Positions 9,196 through 58,190 of a stretch of 64,000 nucleotides of DNA are shown one piece after another. The position numbers were made by a program, and so were the translations under genes. The stretch covers positions 43,586,001 to 43,650,000 of the forward strand of contig OX597823.1 of assembly GCA_951406725.2 (NCBI GenBank). Direction: 5' to 3'. Source of the stretch: Octopus vulgaris (lineage: Eukaryota). Position 1 is the stretch's first letter. The number at the start of each line of letters is the position of its first letter. A model generated the notes under the pieces. It had not been told where the DNA came from. It saw only the letters and a program-made list of their open reading frames with translations, and searched no databases.

Positions 9196-12118
9196 GGAAG
9201 TTGTCCAGTGTCTTCGGCTCGAACGTACGTCGGAACAGACTGGCCAGCTGATTATCGTCGAGACCTAGGGTTTCCCCCAAGGTATCTTCACATTCCGCCT
9301 CTACCAACCCTCTATAGAAGAATGTGGTGGAACCCCCACCGCAGGCGTTGCCCGAGCGACGGAATAGCAGGAGAGCCTTGCGACACTCCATGTACCATGT
9401 GCCTATTTTCGATCTACGATTCAGCCAGGTTTCCCATCCACCGAAACTAGTGAACTTGGGAAACATCAGTTTTGCTAGCGGAGACCACACCCGTTCACCA
9501 TCCAGGTAGAGCCACAGATGTCTTAACCTCAGCGCATGTCTGCGCATCATCAGCCAAGGCATCCCTAGCCCACCCTTTAACGGTTGTTGATAGCAAGTAG
9601 AGCGTTTCACAAGTGGTTTCCCGCCCTTCCACAAGAAGTAGAAGAGCTGTCTTTCCAACTTGATCAACCACGAATCGGGGCAAGGAACGACGGAAAGGCG
9701 GTAGGTGATAACCGATGCGATAAACATATTGGCTACCTCCGCCCTCCCTTTCAGGGATAGCCACCGCCAAGACCAGGTCTTGGTTACTGCAGCCACCCTG
9801 CTCGATACCTCGTCCCAATTCTTCTCTATTTGGAGGTCTGGACCGAACCAAACCCCTAGCAACTTAATCGGACCCTCCGTCCAACGTCCCACGACGCTGT
9901 CAGGAGGCATCGACTTGCCTCTCCAGGTGCCGAGTTGCAAGCCGACTGACTTTTCGCGATTAACTTTTGCTCTTGTCACCGTCTCGTAAACCTCTATGGC
10001 CTTGCCTACTTTACATAGGTGGTCCATTTCGGTTACGATGATGGTGATGTCGTCCGCGTACGCTGACACTGATTTTCCATTACCTGGCTGTCTCGGGATG
10101 CCGCTCAGTTTTCGCAGTAATGGCTCAAGAGCCATCACGTACAAAAGCGGGGAGAGCGGACACCCTTGACAAACCGAGCGCTTGATGTTGAACGGCTTCG
10201 ACAAGAAGCCGTTCACCCGAACTACCGAGTCGATGTTGTCGTAAATTTGGATAATCCACCTGAGGAAGCCAAGGCTCAGCCCGAACTGTGCCAGGGCAGA
10301 TACCAGGTAGCGATGGTCGACCCTATCGAATGCTTTAGATTAGTCTAAATGGACCAGTGCCCCACCCTTGCCAGAATCGCTATTAAACCCCTCTATAGTG
10401 TACCGCATTAGATGGAGATTATCCTGAATGGTTCTGCCAGGAACGGCACATGTCTGTGCCTCCCCGATCAGACCATCCGCGACACGCGCCAATCTTTTCG
10501 ATAACACTTTGGCCAAAATCTTCAACTCTGTGTTTAGCAGAGTGATGGGCCTGAAATTATCAATGCACTCCCCCTTGCTCGGGTCCTTTCTGACGAGTGT
10601 CACTACTCCCCGGCGCACAGATCTGGGTATGAGCCCGTTCTGCTGCCAGTTCGCATAGACCTCCGCCAGTAGGTGCCCGAACAAGTCTGGCATACTCTTA
10701 TATAACTTATAGGGTAGACCATCTAAACCCGGCGCCTTGCCCGCGCCGCAGTCCGCCATCGCCTCAACCACCTCCCCAGGCGTGATTGGCCCTTCACAGC
10801 CCTCCGCATCTCGCCCCGATAAGCGCGGCAGCCCGTCGAGGAGGCCCTCCTCCTATCCAGTCCGCCGCACTCACCGAAAAGCTGAGCGAAGTGCTCCTGA
10901 AAGGCCTCGCACATCTCCTCGGGCTCGTTTAACAACTCACCTTGTTGGTTCGTCAAAGATCGAATCGTGGCATCGTTACCACGCTGAGCTTCCACCACTC
11001 GGGCCCATCTCACGGCGTTGATTCCTTCACAACCCATATGGCGGATCCTAGCCCTGACAATGCAGCCCATGTGTTTGGCCTCGAGGTGCTGGTTTAACAC
11101 CAGTCTCTTGGACGACACCTGAGCCGCAGAGCCAGTTTTCAAGGCTTCCTCTAATTCCTTAACTAGAGTAGTTTCCCTCCTAGCCTCTCTAGCCACTACT
11201 CCTATGCTATATCTAATTGACTCGAACTTGATGGCTCGTTTGAGGGCGTACCACCATTTGTTATTAATGATGGTACCAGATAGTGCCCTCTGAATTATAT
11301 TCCTAATCCGGTCTTTGTACTCCTTAATCCGGTCTTTGTACTCCTTAATCCGGTCTTTGTACTCCTTAATTAAGTTTCCAATAACCGGATCCTCTATTTT
11401 TAACCTTATCTATGTCAAGCTTACAAGTGACCATTTTATGATCACTGTAGCTGACCGGGTAAAACTGTGGACACTTAGCTATTTTACTGTCTACTTTTCT
11501 AATTAGTATTCTATCTAAATATGACCTGGAAGATCCGTCGCTGTTTGACCATGTCCACAATGGAGCGTTCGGAAATTCCAGCCTATAAGGATCTGCTAGC
11601 TCAAAGCGGCTTAGCGGTTCCATGAAGCCACTGTTACCTTTTCTATCTGAACGCGAGCCAACACAATCTACATCCGCTTTGCAAATTGTGTTAAAGTCTC
11701 CTAGCACAACTAATGAATGCGAAGTACCAAGAAAGTTTTCTTGTACACGAAAATAATCACTTTGCCCTGTACTGTTGGGTGCGTAAATTACAACCAGTCT
11801 GATAACTTTACCGTTACTGAACGTCAAATCCATGACGACCAGCCTACCTTCTGGATCTGCAAAAATTAACTTTTTCTCAGAAACCCGGTTTCTTTTTAAT
11901 AGGACCAACACCCCACTCCCGCCCGTAGGACTGCCAGGAGAGAAAAAACTCTCGTAGCCGTCAAACAGCGTGAGCAGACCTCTTGGCCCCTCTAACCGGG
12001 TTTCTGTAGCAACAATAACATCTAAATTACGCGACCTGATATCATGCAGGAAGCGACCTTGCTTCCAGCCTGCTCCCAGGCCGCGCACATTCAAACAACC
12101 AACATAAATGTAATCTAT
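9196..12118 (-). pseudogene. ORF2 (APE endonuclease-RT), disrupted
   Basis: NVRG/GDFN/SDH endonuclease motifs and QGCPLSP/YADD RT motifs. The start ATG is mutated, there is a 22-bp triplication plus deletion near 11305-11370, and further frameshifts and a stop. Confidence 0.9.
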
Positions 12119-12127
12119 TACTTACCT

Positions 12128-13442
12128 TTATATCAGTGATTCGGTTTTTTCTTTTTCTTCTTTGTTTATCTCTTTTTCTGGGCCTCGTGGGGGAGTCTGA
12201 CGTAGGCCCTCGAATATATATGGAGATGTTAAATCCATTCTGAGCGGGCCTGCGTCATGAAAGAATTCGGACTTTATCCACCCGTAATCCTTCCGGCCTA
12301 TTCTGTAAACTATATAGTCATTCTTTTTTCCTATTTTTTCCACTTTGGCCATAGCTGCCAACACGTTCCCGAGTCTGTTGTTTGATGCCTTAACGGCCAT
12401 ATATGAGTTCATCGACTCTCTTTTCTTTTTTAAGTTCACTCTGGGAGGGGTGGTTTCCGTTTTTCTTTTTTTCCTGGTGATTTTTGACCACCCCTCCTCA
12501 TTGCTCTTTTTTTCCTCTGCTGATGGTTCTGCTGCCTCTGTCACCTCCACACCTTCAGTCGTCCCTTCTGGGCCGCCCGGCGCTGCTTCTGGTGACACTT
12601 CATCTTCTTTTCCACCTGGCTGAGGTGCTTCCTGCAGTTTGGGTTGGGGTTGGCATTCCGCCCTTACATGACCCTTCTTGCCGCAGCCGAAGCACCTCGG
12701 CTTTCTGCCCTCTACGAAAACTGTTACTCTATCTTCTTCACTTATTTTTAGAGTTTCTGGAATCTCCTCCAGTGTTTGAATTTCTGCCTGAATGGCTATT
12801 ACTATCCGCTGCCCTTTCCAGAATTCCTCCTCCTCTACTGTGGCCTGGAGGATGTTTATTTTTTCCTCCAGGCCTACCATGACTGCTGCCACCAGACATT
12901 CGGCATCTGCCTCTGGCGGAATGTTATTCATCGTGATTTTTGATGTTCTTTTTCCTCTATACAAGGGGAGGAGAATAATGTTCTCCGCTTTTATTGGCTC
13001 CATAGACAGTTTTTTTAGCTATCTCCTCTGTTGTGAAACGCACCTCTACTGTGCCGTATCTCTTTCCTATGATGTTTGTGATCTTGTCCATTAATGGTTT
13101 TAAGCAATTCTCGATTTTTTTTTTCCTCAATTTTTTGTATCATTTTGCTTGTCGTATTAAAGGTCTTATAGATTATTCTTCTTTTTTCGATTTCATCGTG
13201 TTTTTGGACGTTTGTGACCACTGTCACTTCCGTGCCCTCTTTTGTAACACAGTCCGCATATTTCTTTAAGTCATCTACGTTTATTTTTTTGATTTTCTTA
13301 CCAGCTACTTCTGAGAATTTTTTCGCTGGTGCTGGTGCAGGGGTTTCCTTTTTCTTTGGCGCCACCGCCTCTTTTTTCTTTGGCGACACCGCCGGAGATT
13401 CTTCTTCACTAGTCACGGGAGAATATGAGATGGGGATTCCAT
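12128..13442 (-). pseudogene. ORF1 gag-like protein (CCHC knuckle), frameshifted
   Basis: CFGCGKKGHVRAEC; split across ORFs 13015-13578 and 12128-13003. Confidence 0.88.
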
Positions 13443-13668
13443 CTCGAACAACTGGCTTAATAAGCCCTTGGTAAATCCAAGATAAATGGTATTTTTCCCC
13501 CACGGAGGGGGGAACACCACCACGAAGTCCTCGCACGAAGGCTGACTTCAACAGTTGTACAGCAATGAACAAAGACAAATAGACACACAGTAGAAAATAA
13601 CGTAGAAAATATACACTAAGGAAAATTGTAATAACTCACTACACATGTGGATTGCGTTCCGCCATGTT

Positions 13669-14244
13669 GTTTTATTATTACCCACAAGGGGCGAACATAG
13701 ATGGGACAATACAATCGGGAAAAATGAATAATGAATTATGAAGTTTGTACAATGTGATGTAATGCCCACTCGATCCACGAAATCGAGCGGTTACATTTCG
13801 TCATTTGTTTTTTATTCGTCAACAATATTTTCCAAATAAAACATTTTACACATTTTCAACATACATTTCAAAAATTTTACAAAGTTCAACATTTTTCTTT
13901 CTTCAGAATTTAAAGTTCTTTTTATCATTTCCAAATTAAAGTTTTCACAATACCTTTTCTTTTATATATACTCCATTATCTCTACCAAATCTTGGTAAAT
14001 TTCCATCGTTCGTGGCCACCTTGTAAGTCGGCATTTCATATGTTTTGTCACGTACTTGACAGCTGCCTCGATGAACGCCTCAGCGTCGTTCTCGTGGACG
14101 AGTGCACCTGTTTCTTTCCATTCGGTGCCCATCCTGACCCACGTATATCCATTTGTAACGTTTATTAAATCTTCCATCTCCTCACAGTGCCTGTGATGGA
14201 TCAACGTTCCATAGTATTTGAATTTTCTATTCGTACCTACGTTT
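13669..14244 (-). mobile_element. 3' part of a divergent A-like ORF1-only element (A2); unit 9
   Basis: C-terminal peptide HCEEMEDL...EIMEYI aligns with family A FCPEMKDL...TMIEYV. It has the A-type 3'UTR hairpin (ctcgat..atcgag) and the shared terminus. Confidence 0.8.
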
Positions 14245-16888
14245 TCTGGGAGGGGTGGTTTCCGTTTTTCTTTTTTTCTGGTAATTTTTGCCCACCCCTC
14301 CTCATTTATCTTTTCCTCGCTCTTACTTTACTCCGCCGCTGGTTCTGCTGTCACCGTCACCTCCACACCTTCAGTCTTCCGTTCTGGGCCGTCCGGCGCT
14401 GCTTCTGGTGACACATTATCTTCTTTTCTCTTGGCTTAGGTGCTTCCTGCGGTTGGGGTTGGCATTCCGCCCTTACATGACCCTTCTTGCCGCAGCCGAA
14501 GCACCTCGGCTTCCTGCCCTCCACGAAAACTGTTATTTTCTCGTCTTCACTAATTTTTAACGTTTCTGGAATTTCTTCCAGTATTAAGTTTCCAGTAACC
14601 GGATCCTCTATTTTTAACCTTATCTATGTCAAGCTTACAAGTGACCATTTTATGATCACTGTAGCTGATCGGGTAAAACTGTGGACACTTAGCTATTTTA
14701 CTGTCTACTTTTCTAATTAGAATTCTATCTAAATATGACCTGGAAGATCCGTCGCTGTTTGACCATGTCCACAATGGAGCGTTCGGAAATTCCAGCCTAT
14801 AAGGATCTGCTAGCTCAAAGCGGCTTAGCAGTTCCATGAAGCCACTGTTACCTTTTCTATCTGAACGCGAGCCAATACAATCTACATCCGCTTTGCAAAT
14901 TGTGTTAGTCTCCTAGCACCACTAATGAATGCGAAGTACCAAGAAAGTTTTCTAGTTCACGAAAATAATCACTTTGCCCTGTACTGTTGGGTGCGTAAAT
15001 TGCAACCAGTCTGATAACTTTACCGTTACTGAACGTCAAATCCATGACGACCAGCCTACCTTCTGGATCTGCAAAAATTAACTTTTTCTCAGAAACCCGG
15101 TTTCTTTTTAATAGGACCAACACCCCACTCCCGCCCGTAGGACTGCCAGGAGAGAAACTCTCGTAGCCGTCAAACAGCGGGAGTAGACCTCTTGGCCCCT
15201 CTAACCGGGTTTCTGTAGCAACAATAACATCTAAATTACGCGACCTGATATCATGCAGGAAGCGACCTTGCTTCCAGCCTGCTCCCAGGCCGCGCACATT
15301 CAAACAACCAACATAAATGCAATCCATTACTTACCTTTATATCAGTGGTTCGGTTTTCTCTTGTTCTTCTAACTCTTTTTCTGTGCCTCGTGGGGGAGTC
15401 TGACGTAGGCCCTCGAATATATGTGGAGATGTCACCTCCAATCTAAGTGGGCCTACGTCGTGGAAGAATTCGGATTTTATCCGCCCGTAATCCTTCCGGC
15501 CTATTCTGTAGATTACAAAGTCATTTTTCTTTTCCACTTTCTCCATTTTGGCCATAGCAGCCAACACGTTTCCTAGTCTGCTATTTGCTGCCTTTACGGC
15601 CATATATGAGTCCATTGTCTCCCTTTTCTTTTTTAAAATTATTCTGGGAGGGGTGGTTTCCGTTTTTTCTTTTTTTCTGGTAATTTTTGCCCACCCCTCC
15701 TCATTTATCTTTTCCTCGCTCTTACTTTACTCCGCCGCTGGTTCTGCTGTCACCGTCACCTCCACACCTTCAGTCTTCCGTTCTGGGCCGTCCGGCGCTG
15801 CTTCTGGTGACACATTATCTTCTTTTTCTCTTGGCTTAGGTGCTTCCTGCGGTTGGGGTTGGCATTCCGCCCTTACATGACCCTTCTTGCCGCAGCCGAA
15901 GCACCTCGGCTTCCTGCCCTCCACGAAAACTGTTATTTTCTCGTCTTCACTAATTTTTAACGTTTCTGGAATTTCTTCCAGTGTTTGCACCTCCGCCTGA
16001 ATGGGTATCACTATTTTCTGCCCTTTCCAAAACTCCTCTTCCTCCACTGTGGCCTGGAGGATGTTTATTTTTTTCCTCCAGGCCTACCATCACTGCTGCC
16101 ACCAGACATTCTGCATCTGCCTCTGGCGGTATGTTGTTCATTGAAATTTTCGACGTCCTTTTCCCTCTATACAATGGTAGTAAAACAATGTTTTCTGCTT
16201 TGATCGGCTCCATCGATAGTTTTTTCGCTATCTCCTCAGTAGTAAAACGCACCTCCACTGTGCCGTATCTTTTTCCTCTGCTTATATAGGTTATTTTATC
16301 CATTAAAGGTTTTAGAGAAAACTCTATTTTTTTTTTCTTCGATTTTTTTAAATCATTTTTGTCGTTGTGTTGTAAGTTTTATATATTATTTTTTTTTTCT
16401 ATATCGTCATGTTTTTGTATGTTTGTGACCACAGTCACTTCTGTGCCCTCTTTTTTTACACAGTCTGCAAATTTTTCTAAATTTTCTACATTTATTTTTT
16501 TAATCTTTTTCCCAGCTACTTCAGCGAATTTTTTCGCTGGAGTTGATGCTGGTGCTGGTTTTTCCATTTTCTTGGGCGACGCCGCCTCTTTTTTCTTCGG
16601 CGACAACGCCTCTTTTTTCTTGGCGACAACGCCGGGTATTCATCCTCGCTCGTCACGGGCGAATAAGAGATGGGGGACTCCATCTTGAACAAATGGCTTT
16701 AACAAGCCTTTGGTAAATCCAAATTAATTGTAGTTTTCCCCCACGGTGGGGGGAACACCAACGCGAAGTCCTCGCGCGAAGGCTGACTTCGTCAGTTACA
16801 CAACAATGAACAAAACAGGTAGACAGACAGTATAGAATAACAGAGATAACAATACGAGAGCAAAAATATATCAACTTTCCGCCATGTT
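14245..16888 (-). mobile_element. Rearranged Tx1 element (type E2): 5'UTR, ORF1 (16683-15337), EN domain only (15327-14583), then a re-copied ORF1 segment (14582-14245); unit 8
   Basis: 14245-14582 duplicates ~15643-15982; ORF2 stops at GYWKLNT. Confidence 0.87.
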
Positions 16889-17869
16889 GTTTTAATATTA
16901 CCCACAAGGGGCGAACATAGATGGGACAATACAATCTGATGATGGGGTCAGACACACGAATGGGTTTTTACAATAAAACGAATTTAAAAATTTTCATGAA
17001 ATTACAATAAATGGACAGAAATCGAATGATGTAACAGACCGGAAGACATTACGGGTGGAGTGGGTGCGGGTTTAGCTCGGACCCCACGAGCCCCGCCTCC
17101 CCACTGATACTTTTGGTTACGCTTGGTCTTACATTTATGTTTTCTGCTTTGAAAGTCTCCATCGATAGTTTTTTCGCTATCTCTTCAGTGGTAAAACGCA
17201 CCTCCACTGTGCCGTGTCTTTTACCTCTGTTTATATATGTTATTTTGTCCATTATCGGTTTCAGACAAAATTCTATTTTATTTTCCTCGATTTTCTGTAT
17301 CATTTTTGTTGCTGTGTTGTAAGTTTTATATATAATTCTTTTCTTCTCTATATCGTCTTGTTTCTGTATGTTTGTGACCACAGTCACCTCTGTGCCCTCT
17401 TTCTTTACACTGTCTGTGCAAATTTTTCCAGATTTTCAACATTTATTGTTTTAATCTTTTTCCCAGCTACTTCAGCGAATTTTTTCGCTGGAGTTGATGC
17501 TGGTATTGATTTTTCTATTTTTTTGGGCGACGCCGCCTCCTTTTTCTTCGGCGATAACGCCTCTTTTTTTCTTGGCGACAACGCCTCTTTTTTTCCTGAT
17601 GTCAACGCTGGGTATTCGTCCTCGCTCGTCACGGGCGAATAAGAGATGGGGGACTCCATCTTAAACAAATGGCTTTAACAAGCCTTTGGAGATTCCAAAA
17701 TAATTGTAGTTTTCCCCCACGGAGGGGGGACACCAAGCGCGAAGGCTGACTTCTTCAGTTAAACAACAATAAACAAACAGGTATACAGACAATATAGAAA
17801 AACAGATAACACTATGAGAGCAAAATATATAAACTTACTAACAGACGCAAAAATAGCTTTCCACCATGT
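16889..17869 (-). mobile_element. ~1 kb internally deleted E-type element (5'UTR and ORF1 N-terminus fused to the E 3'UTR); unit 7
   Basis: ORF1 runs to KAENI, then continues directly into taaatgta and the 3'UTR seen at 21286-21530. Confidence 0.88.
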
Positions 17870-19632
17870 GATTTTATTACTACCCACAAGGGGCGAACAT
17901 AGATGGGACAATACAATCGGGGAACTTAAAATAAGAAAGCGAATGACAAGAAAAGGAAAAAATAAAAGTAAAAAATGACATATGAAAGAATATTTACAAT
18001 GAGATGTAAATGCCCACTCGATCCCCGGAATCGAGAGGTTACATTTTCGTCACATATATTTCAACAAAATTTTCTTTTTTCTCTTTTTTTTTTCTTCTCA
18101 CAATTCTATACATATTCTATCATAGTTTCCACTTCTCTGAAGTCCATCACTGAGCCCTCAAGCAGCCGCTCTCTCACTCGAACCTTCGTGTAAAATATTA
18201 CACTCTCTCCGGCAGCTCTGAGGAACTCAGCGACTCTTTCTTCGGGGATTAGAGCAGTCTCCTGCCACTGATCGGTCATCCTGTTGATCCATATATGTCC
18301 CTCCGTATTACATGTCAAGTCTTTCATTTCAGGGCAGAAATGGAAGGTTACTAACTTGTAGTAGTAGTAATCTTGTTTCCGTCCTACGTTTTCCTTCATT
18401 TTCCTTTTCGGGCTTATTTCTTCCTTGTTCTCCTCTCTTTGTTTCTCTCTTTCTTTCTTTTTGCCTTTTCTTTCTCCTTCCTTCTCTTGTCTTTTTGGTT
18501 CTTTGTCTGTTCTCTCTTTCTCTCGTGTTTTATGTTCCTTTTCTTTTTCCTTTTGTGTGCTGTCTTTTCTTTTCGTTTGATTCTGATCTCTCTTGTTTTT
18601 TTCCTATTGTTTCTTTTTCCTTTTTTTTTTCCTGACTCTGTTTTGGTTCTATTTCTTTTTCTTTTATTTCTTTTTCCTTCATTGACTTATTATTTCCTTT
18701 CTCTTGTTGTTTTGTTTCCTTTTCTGTTTTCTTTCTCATTTACAGTATTCTTCTTTTCTTCAAGTTCCTGCTCGCACTCCGCTACGAATTCGTATAACGG
18801 GCACTCTTTTTTAATGTGCCCCCTTGTCCCACACAAGTAACAGTTTGGTTTTCTCCCCTCTACAATTACGCTGAGGGTTTTTTCCTCTTCAATTTCAATT
18901 CTGTATGGGAACCTTTCAATATCCTCTTTTGTGGCCATCAACCACAATTCTACCCCATATCCTCTCCAGTTTACCGCGTTGGACTCCTTAATTGATTCCA
19001 CCTCCACTTCCTCTTCTGCTGCTCCTAGAATAGCTGTTCCCAGCCATTCTGTTTTCACTTCTGGGGGTATATTCGGGATTTTAACCCGGACCCCTCTTCT
19101 TCCCTTGTATGAGGGCCACATTGTGAATTTTTCGGCTCTTAGTACGGTGGTAGCCAGTGAGGCCGCAATTTCTTCCGTTGCACATCTCACCTCCACCGTA
19201 CCAAATTTCTTGCCTCTACTCACGTAGGTTATTTTCCCCATTATGTCTCCCAGACATTTTTCAATTTCGACTCTCCACTCTTGCCAGTTTCTTCGTATTT
19301 TTGTCTTTGGTTCTGTATGTCACTGTCTTGCTTTCTTTATCCTCTTTTGCTTTCGCGGGGGGGATTAGCTTCACGCTATCACCCTCCCTTTTGAAGAGCT
19401 TTTCATATTCTTTGAGTTTATCCTTCTCAAAGAAAACCTCCTTTATGATTATCGACGAATCGTTATTTTTCCCGGTGACCCCCGCGTAAGTCGCCATGAC
19501 TAGAGGGTCAATTCACCTTCTTCGAAAGGTTTCCACACGTGGAGGCAAACGCCTCGCGCGATATCAAATCAATTTACACAGAAAAAATTTCACCGTCTAG
19601 TCACAGATAACACACATAGCTTTCCTCCATGT
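17870..19632 (-). mobile_element. ORF1-only element, family A; unit 6
   Basis: ORF1 19497-18106 (MATYAGV...CYLCGTRGHIKKEC...MIEYV, frameshifted); no ORF2; flanked by a 16-bp near-direct repeat. Confidence 0.9.
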
Positions 19633-21285
19633 AATTTCTTTATTACCCACCAGGGGCTACGAAGAATGGCGGACATAACAAAACATGGGGGACATAGAAC
19701 AATATGATTAAATTTATGAGCAAATGAATATTAAAATGAAAGCGATGCTAACGGCCCCCTCCGCTAGCATCACTTACCTGTCCTTTTGTTTTCACTGTCT
19801 CCTGAATGTTCATTCCCAATACGAAGACCATCCATATCCATTCTTACTCCGAAACTGTCCTCCATATATTCCACGAATTCATCGCTCATTCTTGTATCTT
19901 TCACCTCCCAATTCTCCCTTTCACACCTCAACACAAACTCATCTATATTCTTCTTTTCCAGCACTGTATATCTGGTCCCATCCATTTCATACCATTCATA
20001 CTCCTCCATTATCCTTTTAACTTCTTTCTGTTCAGTCACAATATAAATGTTCGGCCTGGGTTCGTTTTCAAACTCTTGTCTGTGTGTATTTTTCTTTTCT
20101 TTTCTTGTTGGAGGGGAGCGGGTGGGTTCACTGTCTGCAGCGGAAGGGTGGGATTCAGAGGGTGCGGGTGGGTTGGGGCTTCGCACAGTTTTTCTTTTTC
20201 TTTCTTTTTCTCTTTTCTTCCTTCTTCCCACTCTTGTTGCATCTCCTCTTCTATCGTTTCTTTTTCCCTTTGGTTCTCTTTGGTTTCTTCCTCTTTTGGA
20301 GCTTCCGCGACGATTTCCTTTTCTTTTTCCTTTGGTGGGGGAGGGCAGTAGGCTCTTATGTGACCCCTTTGGCCACACTTGTAGCACCTGGGCGCCCTAC
20401 CCTCCACCCACACTCTCATAATAATATTTCCAGTTTTTATACTGTCCGTAAGCTTTTCTATAACTTCCGCCTCCGTCTGTATGTTCATTACTAGTGTGGC
20501 ACCTCTCACGCCTTCATATTTCATAATGGCGTGGAGGATGTCCACTTTATCTTCATTTCCTTTGATAACCGCAGCCGTTATTAATTCGCCCTCTAGGTGT
20601 GGAGGTATTCCTTCCACCCTAATTCTGGTGGTCCTTCTATTCAAATACGAGGGGAACAAGTAAAACTTTTCTGTACTCACCACCTTGGCTGCTATATTCC
20701 TGGCTGCTTTCTCACTTTTAAATTGTACCGTTATGGTTCCATATTGTAATCCTTTTGTCATGTACACAATTTCTTCTGTCTGTTTGAAAGCCTCTTCAAT
20801 TGCTTCCATGTTAATCACTTCCATTTTTCTACCTCCATTCAGAAATACTTTATATTTAATGGTTCTACGATGGAACCAGTCTCCGCGCCCTGCTAGAGGC
20901 AACAGCTCAACCTCACCGTTCTCCTCCTCCTTCATGAACTCCTGGAAGTCCGTCAACTTAGCCAGGTCTATCTCTTTTTCTGTTGACTTCTTCGTTATAC
21001 CTGCATAGGTGCTTTCCATTTTTTTCACCGCCAACTCCTCCTCAGATGTCGACGAAATTTCAGAGAAATTTCTCCCTTGCATCTCATCCGTTTGGTAGAG
21101 GCGGCTCATAGTCGCCTCAGACCGAAAAACGGCCTCCCGAACCGAATAAGTGCAACGCGCAGAACCAGTGAAACGCGAAACCGCATCAACGACGCTCAAA
21201 ATTTCACCACAACAACCACAATACTTTTTGTTCTTATTTCTTTTTTAACCGAATTTTACAGAGCGCAAAAAAACACGACCGCCGA
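19633..21285 (-). mobile_element. ORF1-only element with B-type N-terminus and C-type C-terminus; unit 5
   Basis: ORF1 21109-19770 (CYKCGQRGHIRAYC...RTGK), apparently one frameshift; short 3'UTR with the shared terminus. Confidence 0.88.
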
Positions 21286-31566: not shown

Positions 31567-31779
31567 TCTTTTTTCTCTACATTGAATACTTTATAGACAA
31601 TAGTCTTTTCTTTAATTTAATTTTTTATTATCCATCTGGACTATTCCATTTCTGCACGCTAATTTTATTTTTAATTTATTCATGTAATACTGAAATAGTG
31701 GAGAAGATATGATATTGCTATGGGCTCGCTCTAGGCAAGAAGTTGAACATTTTTTTTTTTTTGCCGATGACACTCCCCG

Positions 31780-39806: not shown

Positions 39807-40054
39807 TGTTTTATTATTACCCACAAGGGGCCAACAAAGAGGGGACAATACAACCTGATGTGGGGTCAGATTCTCGGATGGGGTTACAAAAAGGATGAGA
39901 TTAAAAATTCAAAAATTCACAAAAATGCAAAAATTATAAAATCGAATGAAAAAACAGACCGGAAGACATTACAGGTGGAGTGGGGGCGGGTTCAGCTCGG
40001 ACCCCACGAGCCCCGCCTCACCACTGATACTTTTGGTTTCGTTCTGATTTACAT

Positions 40055-43453: not shown

Positions 43454-43461
43454 CACTTACC

Positions 43462-47500: not shown

Positions 47501-49046
47501 TAGAGGATTACGAGACGGTGACAGGAGCAAAAGTTAATCGCGAAAGTCAGTCGGCTTGCAACTCGGCACCTGGAGAGGCAAGTCGATGCCTCCTGACAGC
47601 GTCGTGGGACGTTGGACGGAGGGTCCGATTAAACTGCTAGGGGTCTGGTTCGGTCCAGACCTCCAAATAGAGAAGAATTGGGGCGAGGTAACGAGCAAGG
47701 TGGCTGCAGTAGCCAAGACCTGGTCTAGGCGGTGGCTATCCTTGAAAGGAGGGCGGAGGTGGCCAATGTGTTTATCGCATCGGTTATCATCTACCGCCTT
47801 TCCGTCGTTCCATGCCCTTGATTCGTGGTTGACCAAGTTGGAAAGACAGCTCTTCTACTTCCTGTGGAAGGGCAGGGGAAACCACTTGTGAAACGCTCTA
47901 CTTGCTGTCAACAACCGTTAAAGGGTGGGCTAGGGATGCCTTGGTTGATGATGCGCAGACATGCGCTGAGGTTAAGACATCTGTGGCTCTACCTGGATGG
48001 TGAACGGGTGTGGTCTCCGTTAGCAAAACTGATGTTTCCCAAGTTCACTAGTTTCGGTGGATGGGAAACCTGGTTGAATCGTAGATCGAAACTCGGTACA
48101 TGGTATACGGAGTGTCGAAAGGCCCTCCTGCTATTCCGTCGCTCGGGCTCAACGCCTGCGGTGGGGGTTCCACCACATTCTTCTATAGAGGGTTGGTAGA
48201 GGCGGAATGTGAAGACACCTTGGGAGAAACCCTGGGTCTCGACGATAATCAGCTGGCTAGTCTGTTCCGACGTACGTTCGAGCCGAAGACTCTGGACAAC
48301 TTCCAGAAGTCTCTGACATGGCAATGCTTACAGAGGAGCTCTACCTGTTCGGGATAAACTCGCAAGGCACGGTGGCCAAGACAGTCCGATGTGTCCAAGA
48401 TGCGGGCGGGATAGGGAAACCGTCCAGCACGCTGTTGTTCATTGTTCGGACGTGTCTGAGGTGTGGGTTTATGCCGAACAGCTGTTGTCAAGCACACGAA
48501 GAGTACAGCTGTCGACTGAGTGTATTAAAAAAATTGACCCACCAGATTTCCTCGCGAAAGAAGGTAAGACTTGTTTTCTCGTTGTGGTAGCAATTGCGAA
48601 GGAGGTGATATGGAAGACGAGAATGAAAGGTATACGGTCAGGCAAGTTCATATCCGGCCCTGGGTTGATGAATTACTTCATCTACCACCTGAAAAGGAAG
48701 ATAGGGCTGGAGAGAAAATGCCTGACTAAAAAGAGTGTATGAAGAACGATGGAAGGATGTAGCACGGAAGTTGAGAATGAATGACACCACATAAATGTAG
48801 ATCAAAACGAAACCAAAAGTATCAGTGGTGAGGCGGGGTACGTGGGGTCCGAGCTGAACCCGCCCCCACTCCACCTGTAGTGTCTTCCGGTCTGTTTTTT
48901 TCTCATTCGATTTTTATAATTTTTGCAATTTTTGTAAATTTTTGAAATTTTTAAACTCATCTTTTGTAACCTCATACGTGAATCTGACCCCACATCAGGT
49001 TGTATTGTCCCCTCTTTGTTGGCCCCTTGTGGGTAATAATAAAACA
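44566..49046 (+). mobile_element. Tx1 element (type E4), 5'-truncated and indel-riddled; array 3 unit 13
   Basis: Collinear with 49047-54345 but broken by frequent indels, densest in 44566-46150. Confidence 0.9.
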
Positions 49047-52000
49047 CCTGATAGGACGTCACTTTGACTTATTCATTGATTCTCAAAAACGAAACGTGAG
49101 TTTTTTGTCTGAAATAGTGTTGTTGAAAGTTAGTAGTTTATTGTTGCTGTGTTAATATTGTTATTTTGTGTCTTTTCAATAAGACGGTGAGTGGCCTTCG
49201 CGCGAAGGTTGTGTACGTAGTTCCCCCCCCGCGGGGGAATTATTGTGTGCCTTCGTGTACGAAACACATCCCAAAAAAAAACAAAAAAAAAAAAAAAAAA
49301 CAAAAAATATTTTCTACTAACGGCTGCAAAGCCAGAATGTCTTTGGAAGGCAGTGAATACAAACTGGAAGGAAAATTCGAAATGGATTTCCCCATTACCT
49401 ATTCACCCATTTCAGGTGATGAAGAATCTCAAACCTCGGGTGAGAGAAGCACGCCGGCGGTGACACCGGAAAAAGAATCGGCGGTAACGCCAGAACAAAA
49501 GGCCCCAACAAAGAAGTTTGCGGAAGTTGTTGGACGCAAACAGAAAGATATAGATATAGAAAACCTAGAGAAATATGAAGACCTTCTAAAGAAAGAAGGA
49601 AATGAAATTGCAGTGAAAAAAGATATGGAAAAAAAGGAAGAGATAGAAAAGAAAAGAATTATATACAAGACATACAGCACGACTACAAAAAGCATACAAA
49701 AAGTGGAAGAATGCAAAATAGAGGAGTGCCTGAAGACAATCAGAAAAGATATCACTTACATCAATAGAGGAAGACGGTTCGGAACAGTAGAAGTGAGGTT
49801 CAGAACCGAAGAAATAGCTAAGAAGCTATCCACAGAACCTCAGAAAGCGGGAAATCTAGTCCTTCTACCCTTGTACAAAGGAAGAAGGACTTCAAAGATA
49901 GTAATGAGAAATATTCCCCCAGAGGCAGACGCCTCATGCCTGGTGGCGGCAGTGATGCTGGGCCTGAAAGAAAAAATCAACATCCTCCAAGCTACAGTGG
50001 AGGAGGAGGGATTTTGGCAGGGCCAGATCATAACAATGGCTATACAAGCAGAGGCCCAGACTCCTGGAAGAAATACCAGAGGTGCTGAGGCTAGATGAGG
50101 AGGAGCGAGTTCTAGTATTTGTAGAAGGAAGAAAACCGAGGTGCTTCGGCTGCGGAAAGAAGGGGCACGTGAGAGCGGAGTGTCAACCGAAACCGCAGGC
50201 AGAAGCACCGTCGGAGAAAGAAGAAACGGAGGAAAAAAAGGAAACCAAAGAGGTGGAAAAAGCTGCAGAAAAGGAAAAAGAAAACGAAAAGAGGAGGGGT
50301 GGTCTAAAGTTACCAAAAAAACGGAAAACTGAAACCACCCCTCAAGAAGAAGAAAACCTAAAGAAAAGGAAAGAGGTTACTTCTTCATTTATGGCCATTA
50401 AGGCTACTAACAACAGACTTGTCAATGTGTTGGCAGCCATGGCCAAGGTGGAACGTATAAGGAAGATGAAAGACTTCATCATATATAAAATAGGCCGGAA
50501 GGACTACAGGAGGATAAAATCCGAGTTCTTCCACGACGTGGGCCCTCTGAGACTGGACATGTCTCCATATCTATGACGAGGGCCTACGTCGGACTCCCCC
50601 ACGAGCCAAAGAAAAAAATGAAGAAGAAGGCGAAACTGCCGAAAAAGCCAAACTACCGATATAAGGTAAGTGATGAACTACATTTATGTTGGTTGTTTAA
50701 ATGTGCGCGGCCTGGGATCAAGCGGGAAGCAAGGTCGCTTCCTTAATGATATCAGGTCGCGCAATTTGGATGTTATTGTTGCTACAGAAACCCGGTTAAA
50801 GGGGCCAAGAGATCTACTCCCACTGTTTGACGGCTACGAGAGTTTTTTCTCTCCTGGCAGTCCTGCAGGCGGGAGTGGGGTGTTGGTCCTACTAAAAAGA
50901 AACCGGGTTTTTGAGAAAAAGTTAATTTTTTCAGACCCAGAAGGTAGGCTGGTCGTCATGGATTTGACGTTCAGTAACGGTAAAGTTATCAGACTGGCTG
51001 CAATTTACGCACCCTGCAGTAATAATGGGCAAAGTGATTATTATCGTGATCTAGAGAACTTTCTCGGTACTTCGCATTCAATAGTTATGCTAGGAGACTT
51101 TAACACAATTTGCAAAGCGGATGTAGATTGTGTTGGCTCGAATGATAGAAAAGGTAACCCAGGCTTCCTGGAACTGCTAAGCCGCTTTGAGCTAGCAGAT
51201 CCTTATAGGTTGGAATTTCCGAACGCTCCATTGTGGACATGGTCAAACAGCGACGGATCTTCCAGGTCATACATAGATAGAATTCTAATTAGAAAGGTAG
51301 ACAGTAAAATAGCTAAGCGTCCACAGTTTTACCCGATCAGCTACAGTGATCATAAAATGGTCACCTGTAAGCTTGACATAGATAAGGTTAGAAAGAGAGG
51401 ATCCGGTTACTGGAAACTTAATACGTCCCTTTTGGCGATTAAGGAGTACAGAGACCGGATTAGGACCATAATTCAGAGGGCGCTGTCTGGTACCATCATT
51501 AATAACAAATGGTGGTACGCCCTCAAACGAGCCATCAAGTTTGAGTCTATTAGATATAGCATAGGAGTAGTGTCTAGAGAGGCTAGAAGGGAAACTACTC
51601 TAGTTAAGGAATTAGAGGAAGCCATGAAAACTGGCTCTGCGGCTCAGGTGGCGTCCAAGAGACTGGTGTTAAACCAGCACCTCGAGGCCAAACACATGGG
51701 CTGCATTGTCAGGGCTAGAATCCGTCATATGGGATGTGAAGGAATCAACGCCGTGAGATGGGCCCGAGTGGTGGAAGCCCGGAATGGCAACGATGCCACG
51801 ATTCGATCTTTGAAGAACCAACAAGGTGAGTTGATAGACGAACCCGAGGAGATGTGTGAGGCCTTTCAGGAGCACTTCGCTCAGCTTTTCGGTGAGTGCG
51901 GCGGACTGGATAGGAGGAGGGCCTTTACGGACCTACTCGACGGGCTGCCGCGCCTATCGGGGCGAGATGCGGAGGGCTGTGAAGGGCCAATCACGCCTGA

Positions 52001-54345
52001 GGAGGTGGTGGAGGCAATGGCGGACTGCGGCGCGGGCAAGGCGCCGGGTTTGGATGGTCTACCCTACGAGTTATATAAGAATATGCCAGACTTGTTCGGG
52101 CACCTACTGGCGGAAGTCTATGCGAACTGGCAGCAGAACGGGTTGATACCCAGATCTGTGCGCCGGGGAGTGGTGACTCTCGTCAGAAAGGACCCGAGCA
52201 AGGGGGAGTGCATTGATAATTTCAGGCCCATCACTCTGCTAAACACAGAGTTGAAGATTTTGGCCAAAGTGTTATCGAAAAGATTGGCGCGTGTCGCGGA
52301 TGGTCTGATCGGGGAGGCACAGACATGTGCCGTTCCGGGCAGAACCATTCAGGATAATCTCCATCTAATGCGGTACACTATAGAGGGGTTTAATAGTGAT
52401 TCTGGCAAGGGTGGGGCACTGGTCCATTTAGACCAATCCAAAGCTTTTGATAGGGTCGACCATCGTTACCTGGTGTCTGCTCTGGCACAGTTCGGACTGG
52501 GCCTTGGCTTCCTCAGGTGGATTATCCAAATTTACGACAACATCGACTCGGTAGTTCGGGTGAACGGCTTCTTGTCGAAGCCGTTCAAAATCAAACGCTC
52601 GGTTCGTCAAGGGTGTCCGCTCTCCCCGCTTTTGTACGTGATGGCTCTTGAGCCATTACTGCGAAAACTGAGCGGCATCCCGAGACAGCCAGGTAATGGA
52701 AAATCAGTGTCAGCGTACGCGGACGACATCACCATCATCGTGACCGAAATGGACCACCTATGTAAAGTAGGCAAGGCCATAGAGGATTACGAGACGGTGA
52801 CAGGAGCAAAAGTTAATCGCGAAAAGTCAGTCGGCTTGCAACTCGGCACCTGGAGAGGCAAGTCGATGCCTCCTGACAGCGTCGTGGGACGTTGGACGGA
52901 GGGTCCGATTAAACTGCTAGGGGTCTGGTTCGGTCCAGACCTCCAAATAGAGAAGAATTGGGGCGAGGTAACGAGCAAGGTGGCTGCAGTAGCCAAGACC
53001 TGGTCTAGGCGGTGGCTATCCCTTGAAAGGGAGGGCGGAGGTGGCCAATGTGTTTATCGCATCGGTTATCATCTACCGCCTTTCCGTCGTTCCATGCCCT
53101 GATTCGTGGTTGACCAAGTTGGAAAGACAGCTCTTCTACTTCCTTGTGGAAGGGCAGGAAACCACTTGTGAAACGCTCTACTTGCTGTCAACAACCGTTA
53201 AAGGGTGGGCTAGGGATGCCTTGGCTGATGATGCGCAGACATGCGCTGAGGTTAAGACATCTGTGGCTCTACCTGGATGGTGAACGGGTGTGGTCTTCTC
53301 CGTTAGCAAAACTGATGTTTCCCAAGTTCACTAGTTTCGGTGGATGGGAAACCTGGTTGAATCGTAGATCGAAACTCGGTACATGGTATACGGAGTGTCG
53401 AAAGGCCCTCCTGCTATTCCGGTCGCTCGGGCAACGCTCGTGGGGGTTCCTGCGGTGGGGTTCCACCACATTCTTCTATAGAGGGTTGGTGGTAGAGGCG
53501 GAATGTGAAGACACCTTGGGAGAAACCCTGGGTCTCGACGATAATCAGCTGGCTAGTCTGTTCCGACGTACGTTCGAGCCGAAGACTCTGGACAACTCCA
53601 GAAGTCTCTGACATGGCAATGCTACAGAGGAGCTCTACCTGTTCGGGATAAACTCGCAAGGCACGGTGGCCAAGACAGTCCGATGTGTCCAAGATGCGGG
53701 CGGGATAGGGAAACCGTCCAGCACGCTGTTGTTCATTGTTCGGACGTGTCTGAGGTGTGGGTTTATGCCGAACAGCTGTTGTCAAGCACACGAAGAGTAC
53801 AGCTGTCGACTGGAGTGTATTAAAAAAATTGACCCACCAGATTTCCTCGCGAAAGAAGGTAAGACTTGTTTTCTCGTTGTGGTAGCAATTGCGAAGGAGG
53901 TGATATGGAAGACGAGAATGAGGTAACACGGTCAGGCAAGTTCATATCCGGCCCTGGGTTGATGAATTACTTCATCTTACCACCTGAAAAGGAAGATAGG
54001 GCTGAAAGACCTGAAAATGCCTGACTAAAAGAGTGTATGAAGAACGATGGAAGGATGTAGCACGGAAGTTGAGAATGAATGACACCACATAAATGTAGAT
54101 CAAAACGAAACCAAAAGTATCAGTGGTGAGGCGGGGCTCGTGGGGTCCGAGCTGAACCCGCCCCCACTCCACCTGTAGTGTCTTCCGGTCTGTTTTTTTC
54201 ATTCGATTTTTATAATTTTTGCAATTTTTGTAAATTTTTGAAATTTTTAAACTCATTCTTTTGTAACCTCATACGTGAATCTGACCCCACATCAGGTTGT
54301 ATTGTCCCCTCTTTTGTTGGCCCCTTGTGGGTAATAATAAAACAC
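49047..54345 (+). mobile_element. Full-length Tx1 element (type E4); unit 14
   Basis: 5'UTR, ORF1 49337/49382-50664, ORF2 50673-54092 and 3'UTR. Confidence 0.95.
50673..54092 (+). pseudogene. ORF2, open through the EN and RT domains, frameshifted after ~53020
   Basis: 810-aa ORF with YADD, followed by collinear fragments. Confidence 0.9.
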
Positions 54346-54361
54346 CCGATAGGACGTTACT

Positions 54362-54412
54362 CCCCGATTGTATTGTCCCCTCTATGTGGCCCCTAGTGGG
54401 TAATAAAGAAAT
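54362..54412 (+). mobile_element. 51-bp 5'-truncated insertion of a family A 3' end; unit 15
   Basis: Matches 56143-56193 with one mismatch; flanked by perfect ccgataggacgttact repeats. Confidence 0.88.
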
Positions 54413-56194
54413 CCGATAGGACGTTACTTCTATGCGTGTTGTTATCTGTGACTAGACGTTGAAATTTTGTTGTGTAAAGTGATTAATATCGCGCGAGGCA
54501 TTTGCCTCCACGTTTGGAAACCTTCCGAAGAAGGTGAATTGACCCTCTAGTCATGGCGACTTACGCGGGGGTCACGGGAAAGAATAATAATGATTCGGCA
54601 ATAATCGTGAAGGATGTTTTCTTTGAGAAGAGTAAACTCAAAGAATATGAAAAACTATTCAAAAGGGAGGGTGATAGCGTGAAGCTAATCCCCCCGCGAA
54701 AGCAAAAGAGGACAAAGAAAACAAAACTGTAACGTATAGAACCCAGGACAAAAGTACAAAGAAACTGGCAAGAGTGGAGATAGCAGAGATCGAAAAATGT
54801 CTGGGAGACATAATGGATAAATCGACCTACGTGAGTAGAGGAAAAAATTTGGTACGGTGGAGGTGAGATGTGCAACGGAAGAAATTGCAGCCTCACTGGC
54901 TACCACTGTTCTAAGAGCGGAAACATTTATAATGTGGCCCTCATACAAGGGAAGAAGAGGGGTCCGGGTTAAAATCCCGAATATACCCCCAGAAGTAAAA
55001 ACAGAATGGCTGGCAACAGCTATTCTAGGAGCAGCAGAAGAGGAAGTGGAGGTGGAATCCTTTAAGGAGTCCAACGCAGTAAATTGGAGAGGATATGGGG
55101 TAGAACTGTGTTTGATGGCCACAAAAGAGGACATTGAAAGGTTCCCTATAGAATAGAAATCGAAGACGAGAAAACCCTCAGTGTAATTGTAGAGGGAAGA
55201 AAACCAAACTGTTACTTGTGTGGGACAAGGGGGCACATTAAAAAAGAGTGCCCGTTATACGAATTCGTAGCGGAGTGCGAGCAGGAACTTGAAGAAAAGA
55301 AGAATACTGTAAATGAAAAAGAAAACATAGAAAAGGAAACAAAACAACAAGAGAAAGGAAATAATAAGTCAACGAAGGAAAAAGAAATAAAAGAAAAGAA
55401 AGAAATAGAACCAAAACAGAGTCAGGAAAAGAAAAAGGAAAAAGAAACAACAGGAAAAAAACAAGAGAGAGATCAGAACCAAACGAAAAGAAAAGACGGC
55501 ACACAAAAAGAAAAAGAAAAGGAACATAAAACACGAGAGAAAGATAGAACAGACAAAGAACCAAAAAGACAAGAGAAGGAAGAAGAAAGAAAAGAAAAAA
55601 AGAGAGAAAGAGAGAAACAAAGAGAGGAGAACAAGGAAGAAGTAAGCCCGAAAAGGAAAACGAGAGAAAACGTAGGACGGAAACAAGATTACTACTACTA
55701 CAAGTTAATAACCTTCCATTTCTGCCCTGAAATGAAAGACTTGACATGGAATATGGAGGGACATATATGGTCAACAGGATGACTGATCAGTGGCAGGAGA
55801 CTGCTCTGATCCCCGAAGAAAGAGTCGCTGAGTTCCTCAGAGCAGCTGGAGAGAGTGTAATATTTCACACGAAGGTTCGAGTAAGAGAGCGGCCGCCTGA
55901 GGGCTCAGTGATTGACTTTAGAGAATTGAAAGCTATTATGGAATACGTATAAAATTGTGAGAAGAGAGAGAAGAAAGAAGAGAAAATAGAAAATTATTGT
56001 GAAATATATGTGACGAAAATGTAACCTCTCGATTCCGGGGATCGAGTGGGCATTTGCATCTCATTGTAAATATTCTTTCATTTGTCATTTTTTTTTTTTT
56101 TTTTTTTTCCTTTTCTTGTCATTCGCTTTCTTATTTTAAGTTCCCCGATTGTATTGTCCCCTCTATGTGGCCCCTAGTGGGCAATAAAGAAATA
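54413..56194 (+). mobile_element. ORF1-only element, family A; unit 16
   Basis: ORF1 54553-55952, frameshifted; shared terminus. Confidence 0.9.
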
Positions 56195-58008
56195 CTGATA
56201 GGAGGTTTGGTTCGGTAGGAACACGTGTCGGAAATCTATGCGTGTTGTTATCTGTGACTTGACGGTGAAATTTTTTCTGTGTAAATTGATTTGATATCGC
56301 GCGAGGCGTTTGCCTCCACGTGTGGAAACCTTCCGAAGAAGGTGAATTGACCCTCTAGTCATGGCGACTTACGCGGGGGTAACCGGGAAAAATAACGATT
56401 CGTCGATAATCATAAAGGAGGTTTTCTTTGAGAAGGATAAACTCAAAGAATATGAAAAGTTTTTCAAAAGGGAGGGTGATAGCGTGAAGCTAATCCCCCC
56501 CCCCGCGAAAGCAAAAGAGGATAAAGAAAGCAAGACAGTGACATACAGAACCCAAGACAAAAATACGAAGAAACTGGCAAGAGTGGAGATAGCCGAAATT
56601 GAAAAATGTCTGGGAGACATAATGGGGAAAATAACCTACGTGAGTAGAGGCAAGAAATTTGGTACGGTGGAGGTGAGATATGCAACGGAAGAAATTGCGA
56701 CCTCACTGGCTACCACCGTACTAAGAGCCGAAAAATTCACAATGTGGCCCTCATACAAGGGAAGAAGAGGGGTCCGGGTTAAAATCCCGAATATACCCCC
56801 AGAAGTGAAAACAGAATGGCTGGCAACAGCTATTCTAGGAGCAGCAGCAGAGGAAGTGGAGGTGGAATCTATTAAGGAGTCCAACGCGGTAAACTGGAGA
56901 GGATATGGGGTAGAATTGTGGTTGATGGCCACAAAAGAGGATATTGAAAGGTTTCCATACAGAATTGAAATTGAAGAGGAAAAAACCCTCAGCGTAATTG
57001 TAGAGGGGAGAAAACCAAACTGTTACTTGTGTGGGACAAGGGGGCACATTAAAAAAGAGTGCCCGTTATACGAATTCGTAGTGGAGTGCGAGCAGGAACT
57101 TGAAGAAAAGAAGAATACTGTAAATGAGAAAGAAAACATAGAAAAGGAAACAAAACAACAAGAGAAAGGAAATAATAAGTCAATGAAGGAAAAACAAATA
57201 AAAGAAAAGAAAGAAATAGAACCAAAACAGAGTCAGGAAAAAAAAGGAAAAAGAAACAATAAGAAAAAAACAAGAGAGGGATCAGAATCAAACGAAAAGA
57301 AAAGACGGCACACAAAAGGAAAAAGAAAAGGAACATAAAACACGAGAGAAAGAGAGAACAGAGAAAGAACCAAAAAGACAAGAGAAGGAAGGAGAAAGAA
57401 AAGAAGACAAAAAGAGAGAAAGAGAGAAACAAAGAGAGGAGAACAAGGAAGAAATAAGCCCGAAAAGGAAAATGAAGGAAAACGTAGGACGGAAACAAGA
57501 TTACTATTACTACAAGTTAGTAACCTTCCATTTCTGCCCTGAAATGAAAGACTTGACATGTAAAACGGAGGGACATATATGGGTCAACAGGATGACCGAT
57601 CGGTGGCAGGAGACTGCTCTAATCCCCGAAGAAAGAGTCGCTGAGTTCCTCAGAGCTGCCGGAGAGAGTGTAATATTTTACACGAAGGTTCGAATGAGAG
57701 AGCGGCTGCCTGAGGGCTCAGTGATAGACTTCAGAGAAGTGGAAACTATGATAGAATACGTATAGAATTGTGAGAAGAAAAAAAAAGAAAAAAAAAGAGA
57801 AAAAAGAAAATTTTGTGAAATATATGTGACGAAAATGTAGCCTCTCGATTCCGGGGATCGAGTGGGCATTTACATCTCATTGTAAATATTCTTTCATATG
57901 TCATTTTTACTTTTATTTTTTCCTTTTCTTGTCATTCGCTTTCTTATTTTAAGTTCCCCGATTGTATTGTCCCATCTATGTTCGCCCCTAGTGGGTAATA
58001 AAGAAATA
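56195..58008 (+). mobile_element. ORF1-only element, family A; unit 17
   Basis: ORF1 56361-57765 with one apparent frameshift in an A-run near 57240. Confidence 0.92.
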
Positions 58009-58190
58009 CCGATAGGATGTTACTTATTCATCGATACTCAAAAACTGAACTTTCACCAACTGAATACTCGTCATGTAGTGCCTTACTGCTTTCTGCTGGA
58101 TTTTACCTCGAGAAAGGAACCCTGAGGAAGGAGGGCTGAATTTCGAATACTTCGTACAAAAAACGGCTGCAGGTTAGGAAAAAAAATTAA
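58009..58190 (+). mobile_element. 5'UTR remnant of an E3/E4-like element terminating array 3
   Basis: gatactcaaaaactgaacttt matches the 5' end of unit 12 (reverse complement of 39786-39806). Confidence 0.65.

Follow-up and report, generated by a model that had tools for sequence, protein, structure and literature searches.

Mixed head-to-tail arrays of Tx1-like LINEs and ORF1-only partners at a Helitron-like target repeat in Octopus vulgaris

A 64,000-nucleotide stretch of the Octopus vulgaris genome (assembly GCA_951406725.2, contig OX597823.1; C10:43586001-43650000, referred to here as the window) contains three head-to-tail arrays of long interspersed elements (LINEs) that fit the Tx1 group, made up of elements with two open reading frames (ORFs) and of elements that carry ORF1 only. 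By searching the 2.8-Gb genome, we found that such arrays occupy a defined position within a different multicopy repeat, that target duplications recur at their junctions, that occupied sites have been targeted again, and that one locus has gained units at its 5′ end. The explanation that we favor, to which we assign a probability of roughly 0.78, combines targeted insertion, growth at the 5′ end, and mobilization in trans. The ORF2-bearing families A1 and A2 and their relatives would use target-primed reverse transcription to enter a preferred site, which is mainly one position in a Helitron-like repeat but also includes two further targets, T2 and T3, and look-alike single sites. Each insertion would leave a target duplication, and with element 5′ ends that resemble the target, the site would thereby be rebuilt ahead of the newest unit. 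Later copies would then land at occupied sites far more often than at empty ones, and the chain would extend mainly at its 5′ end. ORF1-only families with a selected ORF1 and a shared tail of ~45 nucleotides would borrow ORF2 in trans, and unequal exchange would afterwards duplicate, delete, and mix units.

The main target is a fixed base in a ~1.02-kb repeat. Helitrons start with TC, end in a hairpin followed by CTAG, and lack terminal inverted repeats; judged by eye, the repeat has all of these features and thus the ends of a nonautonomous Helitron. Exact patterns detected 121 occupied and 899 empty sites genome-wide, and exact matching makes both values lower bounds. At many loci a whole array splits one copy of the repeat into halves, and array 1 of the window starts in a 5′ half. 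Units of the ORF1-only families B and E often join ~9 to 12 bases upstream of the site used by families A and C. One target variant was found at 86 of 100 listed occupied sites versus 31 of 100 listed empty sites (hand counts; odds ratio, 14), either because certain sequences are preferred or because the incoming RNA converts the site. The repeat also carries a frameshifted relic of an ORF1 from the same superfamily (profile score up to 38.7 bits, versus a best score of 1.5 in 200 shuffles), and the insertion site falls inside this decayed relic. T2 lies downstream of array 3; all four matches to its pattern were occupied, and further A2 arrays are inserted there. The third multicopy target, T3, holds A2 elements of the type of units X and W at three loci, where the duplications reach ~25 bp. 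A search for coding relics near the insertion sites in T2 and T3 gave no match. The initial annotation of the window had placed all insertions at element-element junctions, an arrangement at odds with chains that start from a defined position in a different multicopy repeat.

Ten of the first 30 of 371 matches to the target repeat were interrupted at the same base. Selected without regard to size, these 10 occupied sites contain 1, at least 2, 1, 10, 4, 6, 1, 2, 5, and 1 units, respectively. Six of the 10 are therefore multiunit, compared with the 6% expected from independent insertion at 12% occupancy (P = 9e-6). Arrays found through a search with family B2 were longer, with 12, 15, and more than 23 units. 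At C2:158.83M, an 18-bp locus-specific duplication is present at every junction of a five-unit array; at C10:73.27M, a 15-bp locus-specific duplication is present at every junction; and at C1:108.57M, a rare target variant recurs three times. The spacers at the junctions are target duplications or target mimics. Because arrays at single-copy look-alike sites also show recurring duplications, the self-assembly suggested by the initial annotation holds once a site has been seeded; the seeding takes place at a target, and growth, where it can be read, occurs at the 5′-most junction and not at any junction. We infer that the preference for occupied sites stems from the rebuilt target.

Collapsed or expanded repeats could in principle have produced such chains as assembly artefacts. 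In the window, array 1 meets a gap, the junction at 44570 is noisy, and 9197-44570 nearly duplicates a region of C15; other arrays also touch gaps. Elsewhere there are arrays without gaps, bordered by unique sequence and by both halves of the target repeat; their units differ by 0.1 to 9%, and a tail-to-5′ B junction was recovered in contigs of an independent run, which makes an artefact extremely unlikely. Our biological conclusions rest on these gap-free arrays at other loci and not on the window.

The array arrangement is found throughout the genome. The initial annotation had proposed a tally of a shared terminal motif as a check on array formation, but this tally is misleading: the motif has 23,219 exact matches, and the first 30 were all copies of a dispersed ~230-nucleotide element resembling a short interspersed element (SINE), with target duplications. 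We therefore used a LINE-specific tail pattern, which has 349 matches and misses the tails of families B and E. Among the first 100 listed, 56 tails fell into 22 clusters (0.3% expected), all of which were co-oriented, with a spacing of mostly ~1.8 or ~5.2 kb; head-to-tail chains are the usual arrangement of these long elements genome-wide. Of the first 30 LINE-type tails, 8 were followed by the 3′ half of the target repeat, 15 by the 5′ end of another element, and 7 by other DNA.

The SINE shares the tail and differs in its insertion pattern. In the first 30 copies listed, GGTA followed in 19 and SINE-like sequence in 14; the SINE favors GGTA as its site, and frequent insertion into copies of itself has produced tandem units of 184 bp. 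Its copies are older (median, 6.9% apart). Its head contains A- and B-box-like motifs by eye, with no Rfam match at an E value of ≤5; Rfam likewise matched nothing in the window, and no small-RNA gene target was found. A pattern for the SINE at the main target site had no match for the one junction form tested. Greater age, or reliance on a different ORF2, may be all that sets the SINE apart here.

The Tx1 assignment draws on the architecture of both ORFs and on the preference for a fixed site. The open 1131-amino-acid ORF2 of unit X (Table 1) contains Exo_endo_phos, RVT_1, and zf-RVT domains (Pfam), and its closest solved structure is L1 ORF2p (E = 3e-68). Of the 150 endonuclease matches listed, 146 are at least 88% identical to that of the window, and by hand count ~58 sit in open frames of 1128 to 1134 amino acids. 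A quick tree of the reverse transcriptase (89 rows) put the element outside the 45-row clade of an L1-named match (support, 95) and grouped it toward a fish element with ZCCHC3-type domains (83); the tree included no named Tx1 reference. At least three ORF2 families exist, namely A1, A2, and a third at ~77% identity to A2; the idea that one single ORF2 moves all partners is not supported. ORF1 consists of two RRM-like folds and a CCHC knuckle with a zf-CCHC Pfam match; it matched a ZCCHC3-type cluster of a structure atlas at 0.90, and its predicted model matched tandem RRMs with low TM-scores. An ORF1 that combines RRM-type and CCHC (ZCCHC3-like) domains is tied to the Tx1 clade. HAL1 proper, which derives from an L1-clade ORF1 of the coiled coil-RRM-CTD type, was rejected as an identity for the ORF1-only units: their ORF1 is of the RRM-RRM-CCHC type, and the L1 ORF1 family gave no Pfam match to any of these ORF1s.

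Full-length A2-only arrays of three to five or more units, many with open ORF2s, are present at C27:32.96-32.99M, C30:10.43-10.45M, and C22:14.18-14.24M. Two A1 ORF1 subtypes (L075:7109-8101 and L070:4885-5787) are saturated at synonymous sites (dS, about 3; dN, 0.05) in elements that are >90% alike overall, which points to ORF1 swapping. Elements of the A′ subtype break at the same place, the end of the endonuclease region (~nucleotide 2307), at window position 14585 and at C1:115.85M. Additional families were also noted at L075:1-1760, L042, L163:7153-8145, and L188:1263-1696: the third ORF2 family, full-length D, E, and another B-like ORF1 at 57% to B1.

The ORF1-only units belong to at least five families (B1/B3, B2/B4, C, D, and E) of 1.65 to 1.9 kb, all with ORF1 and without ORF2. 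Units of 1.65 to 1.8 kb contain open ORF1s of 442, 471, and ~465 amino acids, and the 443-residue ORF1 of unit B2 combines tandem RRM-like folds and a CCHC knuckle with a family-specific C-terminal module. The ORF1 cores of A, B1, B2, and C are 28 to 58% identical between families, and C-terminal modules have been swapped, with B4 joining a B2 front to a B1 end. Six comparisons of closely related B and C copies gave dN/dS values of 0.09 to 0.22, evidence of purifying selection. The units have target duplications and 5′ truncations of their own. Only the last ~45 nucleotides are common to the ORF1-only units, the ORF2 elements, and the SINE. A single-protein search with the B2 ORF1 gave no match, and a profile search with ORF1 returned one protein, an uncharacterized Octopus sinensis entry. 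As the initial annotation had recognized, several distinct ORF1-only families have the tail of the ORF2 elements and insert at the same sites, and we infer from these sequence features that they are mobilized in trans by the ORF2 of a partner through the shared tail. One B1 unit, inside an array at C1:74.68M, contains an inverted duplication (~940 bp) of its 3′ half.

To what extent the units moved singly can be judged from their relatedness. We compared 116 units of >300 nucleotides from 23 arrays, with shorter stubs and tail-less units excluded. For 88 units that have an array mate of the same family, the nearest relative lay at another locus in 38 cases and in the same array in 50. The next unit also matched in only 7 of the 38 close cross-locus pairs, which mostly rejects transposition of whole blocks, and it differed in all 8 of the listed pairs outside B2. 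These patterns show that units moved mainly one at a time; the A>G-changed copies described below point to passage through RNA. A double insertion could instead have formed a dimer that was then expanded mostly by unequal crossing-over or gene conversion, as in the Drosophila R1 array. The 50 relatives within arrays are consistent with such exchange, as are the identical blocks in the two longest B2 arrays (units 5-7 = 9-11 at C10:47.67M and 2-3 = 10-11 at C8:9.6M), the mosaic C units at subtype boundaries, and recombination between B3 and B4 at the window locus. We nevertheless regard this account as unlikely, given arrays that mix up to four families with 28 to 58% protein identity, the 38 relatives at other loci, and unique A>G-changed units that point to passage through RNA. 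The initial annotation was thus right that unequal crossing-over alone is insufficient, although local block duplication does contribute.

Whole chains might also have been inserted at once, through multiunit read-through RNAs or template jumping, with a 3′ A element supplying ORF2 in cis. In keeping with this, A is often the 3′-most unit (six C>A and two B>A junctions), 5′-truncated C units lie directly upstream of A1 at two loci, and the seven cross-locus pairs mentioned above have matching next units. The differing neighbors of the listed non-B2 pairs, the recurrence of locus-specific duplications at inner junctions, and the complete absence of A from several arrays argue against it, and we consider insertion of whole chains very unlikely.

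Five of the 116 units showed an excess of sense-strand A>G changes (81, 118, 17, 17, and 25 changes). Adenosines after G were avoided in four of the five, including window B1 (P = 9e-3 to 4e-14), and weakly in the fifth (P = 0.07). Avoidance of a 5′ G is the pattern of ADAR, and the lineage of this genome is known for heavy RNA editing. The sense-strand excess and, in four units, the ADAR-like context point to passage through RNA, and ADAR is the putative cause of the changes. In window B1, 16 changes are clustered at 30668-30835. Four of the five units are the 5′-most in what was assembled; the nearest parent lay in the same array for two and elsewhere for three.

The direction of growth could be read at one locus. 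A second copy of window 9197-44570 is present at C15:65.717-65.75M, with flanks 0.7% apart and shared units (B4-C-Adel-A′-D-A0, where Adel is an internal-deletion derivative of A) 0.04 to 1.6% apart, so that the C15 copy is either the other allele or a recent duplicate. On C15, the order is repeat 5′ half, B3′, B4, C, A-deletion, A′, D, A0, repeat 3′ half. Only in the window do B1 and B2 precede B3, with the tail of B2 joined at the very B3 5′ junction by which the C15 array borders the repeat. As C15 lacks the two 5′-most units of the window, array 1 appears to have grown at its 5′ end, and 5′ gain is the simple reading of this locus; the alternative, exact loss of B1 and B2, would require a crossover within 4 to 7 bases. 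At four loci the C subtypes alpha, beta, and gamma run 5′ to 3′, C gamma (3′) has more private changes than alpha (9.1 versus 3.7), and mixed neighbors were ordered E/B>C>A in 14 of 17 cases, a direction chosen after looking. We think it quite likely that 5′ growth is the general rule.

Several observations weigh against the explanation set out above. The polarity evidence comes from one locus, in a window with assembly faults, and there the window and C15 also differ in A1 and in most of B3, along a stretch that begins within B3 and ends where B4 starts, which requires recombination. When age was estimated by the nearest cross-locus relative in 17 arrays, no gradient emerged: the 3′-most unit was more diverged than the 5′-most in 9 and less diverged in 8. 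Copies of A1 at the 3′ terminus are often very young (0.3 to 0.5%), and an outgroup makes C alpha, at the 5′ side, more ancestral (26 sites versus 15), the opposite of 5′ growth. The own-array relatives, together with the identical B2 blocks, indicate that duplication or assembly error adds units. The SINE has the tail and yet no main-site match in the junction form tested, so the tail alone does not explain targeting. Finally, no contig among those of the four public runs consulted spans an array.

Each ingredient of this system has a precedent. Tx1-Mar/SINEU in crocodilians and Tx1L in Tx1D of Xenopus are cases of Tx1 LINEs that target other transposons, and tandem copies around a target duplication, formed by sequential insertion, have been described (Kojima 2015, PMC4494074). 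The octopus elements share with these systems a fixed site in another transposon, a nonautonomous partner with the same target, and tandems with a target duplication. They differ in that the target is a Helitron-like repeat, within a captured ORF1 relic, that the partners are protein-coding ORF1-only elements, and that the chains are mixed, contain 10 to more than 23 units, and show 5′ gain. Nonautonomous LINEs that retain ORF1 (HAL1, HeT-A, and Ag-Sponge) are listed for the L1, Jockey, and CR1 clades in the accessible part of a later survey (Kojima 2018, PMC5786205). Like these, the octopus families have ORF1 without ORF2 and a 3′ end in common with an autonomous LINE; unlike those in that list, they are of the Tx1 type, with at least five coexisting families that share target sites and swap C-terminal modules.

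Consecutive insertion has been noted for the HeT-A/TART/TAHRE arrays of Drosophila (10.1101/158386). Those arrays, like ours, are mixed head-to-tail series of ORF1-only and ORF2 elements. Their new copies join the 5′ side; in the octopus, gain of this kind is seen at the window/C15 locus, with no support from the age comparison and an outgroup result that points the other way. Unlike them, the octopus arrays are interstitial, occupy ~120 or more loci, use an endonuclease target, have target duplications, and do not belong to Jockey; they lie midcontig inside a dispersed repeat and not at chromosome ends, with an L1/Tx1-like ORF2. For Drosophila R1, the same source describes double insertion at one site followed by unequal exchange (McGurk and Barbash, 10.1101/158386). 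Site-specific double insertion, units parted by the target duplication, and later exchange are common to both; R1 is one family expanded mostly by exchange, whereas the octopus loci gained several families unit by unit. A repeat annotation of octopus (Bonar et al. 2026, PMC13282606) counts 421 insertions from 13 L1-Tx1 families with recent activity; the words "array," "target," and "nested" are absent from its main text, and its repeat library or supplements may hold these families. The available parts of PMC4758252 and PMC8869645 contain nothing on this system. In the literature searched, which lay outside Repbase, Dfam, and most subscription journals, we found no Tx1 ORF1-only guild, Helitron/ORF1-relic target, or ADAR-edited genomic LINE copies, and the combination is without a description there.

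One tail is shared by ORF2 elements, at least five ORF1-only families, and an ORF1-less SINE with differing insertion patterns, which amounts to a natural experiment on what ORF1p adds to target choice. The ~120 or more polar arrays show how LINE-derived satellites begin. Copies in the genome that bear as many as 118 A>G changes would testify directly to RNA editing written back into the germline genome. With many ORF2 frames open, a short, defined target is at hand for biochemical work. Targeting of HeT-A is directed by Gag. A tentative and rather doubtful extension of our explanation is that the chains are an interstitial counterpart of HeT-A/TART, in which partner ORF1p, or RNA homology to resident copies, steers insertion to occupied sites while the ORF1-less SINE scatters. 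The target would then be the ORF1 of an ancestral rival, amplified ~thousand-fold by a Helitron, and each chain would preserve the order in which retrotransposons succeeded one another, with ADAR-edited copies re-entering the germline where the chain grows.

The window holds 15 copies of the tail motif (0 in 50 shuffles) and 17 units in three arrays, each co-oriented as the initial annotation had stated (Table 1). Its count of ~18 units was close, and its description of units that abut without host spacer was not upheld for most units; it had missed the target, the SINE, and the editing. Array 1 (minus strand) runs from 31565 to 9197, array 2 (minus, 44570 to 34836) consists of two A2 elements, and array 3 (plus, 44571 to 58007) consists of two A2 elements, a stub of ~65 nucleotides, and two C units; ~3.2 kb of other DNA (31566-34835) separates arrays 1 and 2. 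Most junctions contain short spacers of up to ~35 nucleotides that repeat the target: ACATGG.GGAA at 26466, 19632, 17869, 16887, and 13667; GATT.. at 31565, 29820, and 28149; and GATAGGA at 49050, 54348, 54415, 56197, and 58011.

Parts of the window appear to be misassembled. Array 1 ends in a gap, and at the A′/D junction ~4 kb present on C15 is missing, owing to either a deletion or a misjoin. Unit Y has 12 to 13 indel openings per 400 columns near 44570, falling to 2 to 7 further in, and this head-to-head point is probably a low-coverage contig end or a misjoin. Window 9197-44570, between the gap and the noisy junction, nearly duplicates C15:65.715-65.751M and probably represents a second haplotype that was left uncollapsed and assigned to C10, or else a recent duplication. 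Across window 26000-32200, all 30 bins are covered by short contigs from four public runs, and one contig shows the tail-to-5′ B junction.

Table 1. Units and flanking features of the window (positions relative to its first nucleotide)
Feature	Array	Positions	Strand	Description
Assembly gap		9097..9196	.	100 N
A0	1	9197..13667	-	Two-ORF; runs into assembly gap; in C15 copy ends on Helitron-like repeat 3′ half
D 3′ half	1	13668..14584	-	344-nucleotide repeat of A′ ORF1 plus 3′ half of ORF1-only family D; D full length in C15 copy
A′	1	14585..16887	-	Two-ORF; cut off after endonuclease region; near full length in C15 copy
A-deletion	1	16888..17869	-	A internal-deletion derivative, ~980 nucleotides: ORF1 5′ part fused to ORF2 end and 3′ untranslated region; also in C15 copy
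C	1	17870..19632	-	ORF1-only; gamma subtype
B4	1	19633..21285	-	ORF1-only; N terminus B2-type, C-terminal module B1-type
A1	1	21286..26466	-	Two-ORF; frameshifted ORF2; absent from C15 copy
B3	1	26467..28149	-	ORF1-only; its 5′ junction adjoins Helitron-like repeat in C15 copy
B2	1	28150..29820	-	ORF1-only; open 443-amino-acid ORF1 at 29644->28316; absent from C15 copy
B1	1	29821..31565	-	ORF1-only; 5′-most unit; absent from C15 copy
Helitron-like repeat 5′ half		31566..31882	-	Repeat ~1.02 kb, nonautonomous; copy internally deleted; holds target site in decayed ORF1 relic
W	2	34836..39806	-	Two-ORF A2; 3′-most of array 2; inserted in old SINE-like sequence; 15-bp target duplication seen at C15 copy
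X	2	39807..44570	-	A2 without first ~540 nucleotides; open 1131-amino-acid ORF2 at 43453->40061
Y	3	44571..49046	+	A2; indel gradient from 5′ end
Z	3	49047..54344	+	Full-length two-ORF A2; frameshifted ORF2
Stub	3	54345..54412	+	5′ truncated (tail only); flanked by 14-bp duplication of target T2
C	3	54413..56193	+	ORF1-only; alpha-leaning mosaic
C	3	56194..58007	+	ORF1-only; gamma subtype; 3′-most of array 3
T2 downstream half		58008..64000	+	T2 is a low-copy long repeat, target of A2, A1, and C units at other loci

T2 exceeds 12 kb, and its copies are 96 to 99% identical. It contains fragments that we take, from their motifs, to be RTE-like and mariner-like (mariner transposase-like at window 59376-59792, minus strand). 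The T2 copy at C10:34.73M has the same series of junctions as array 3 of the window, but one of its C units is 5% different.

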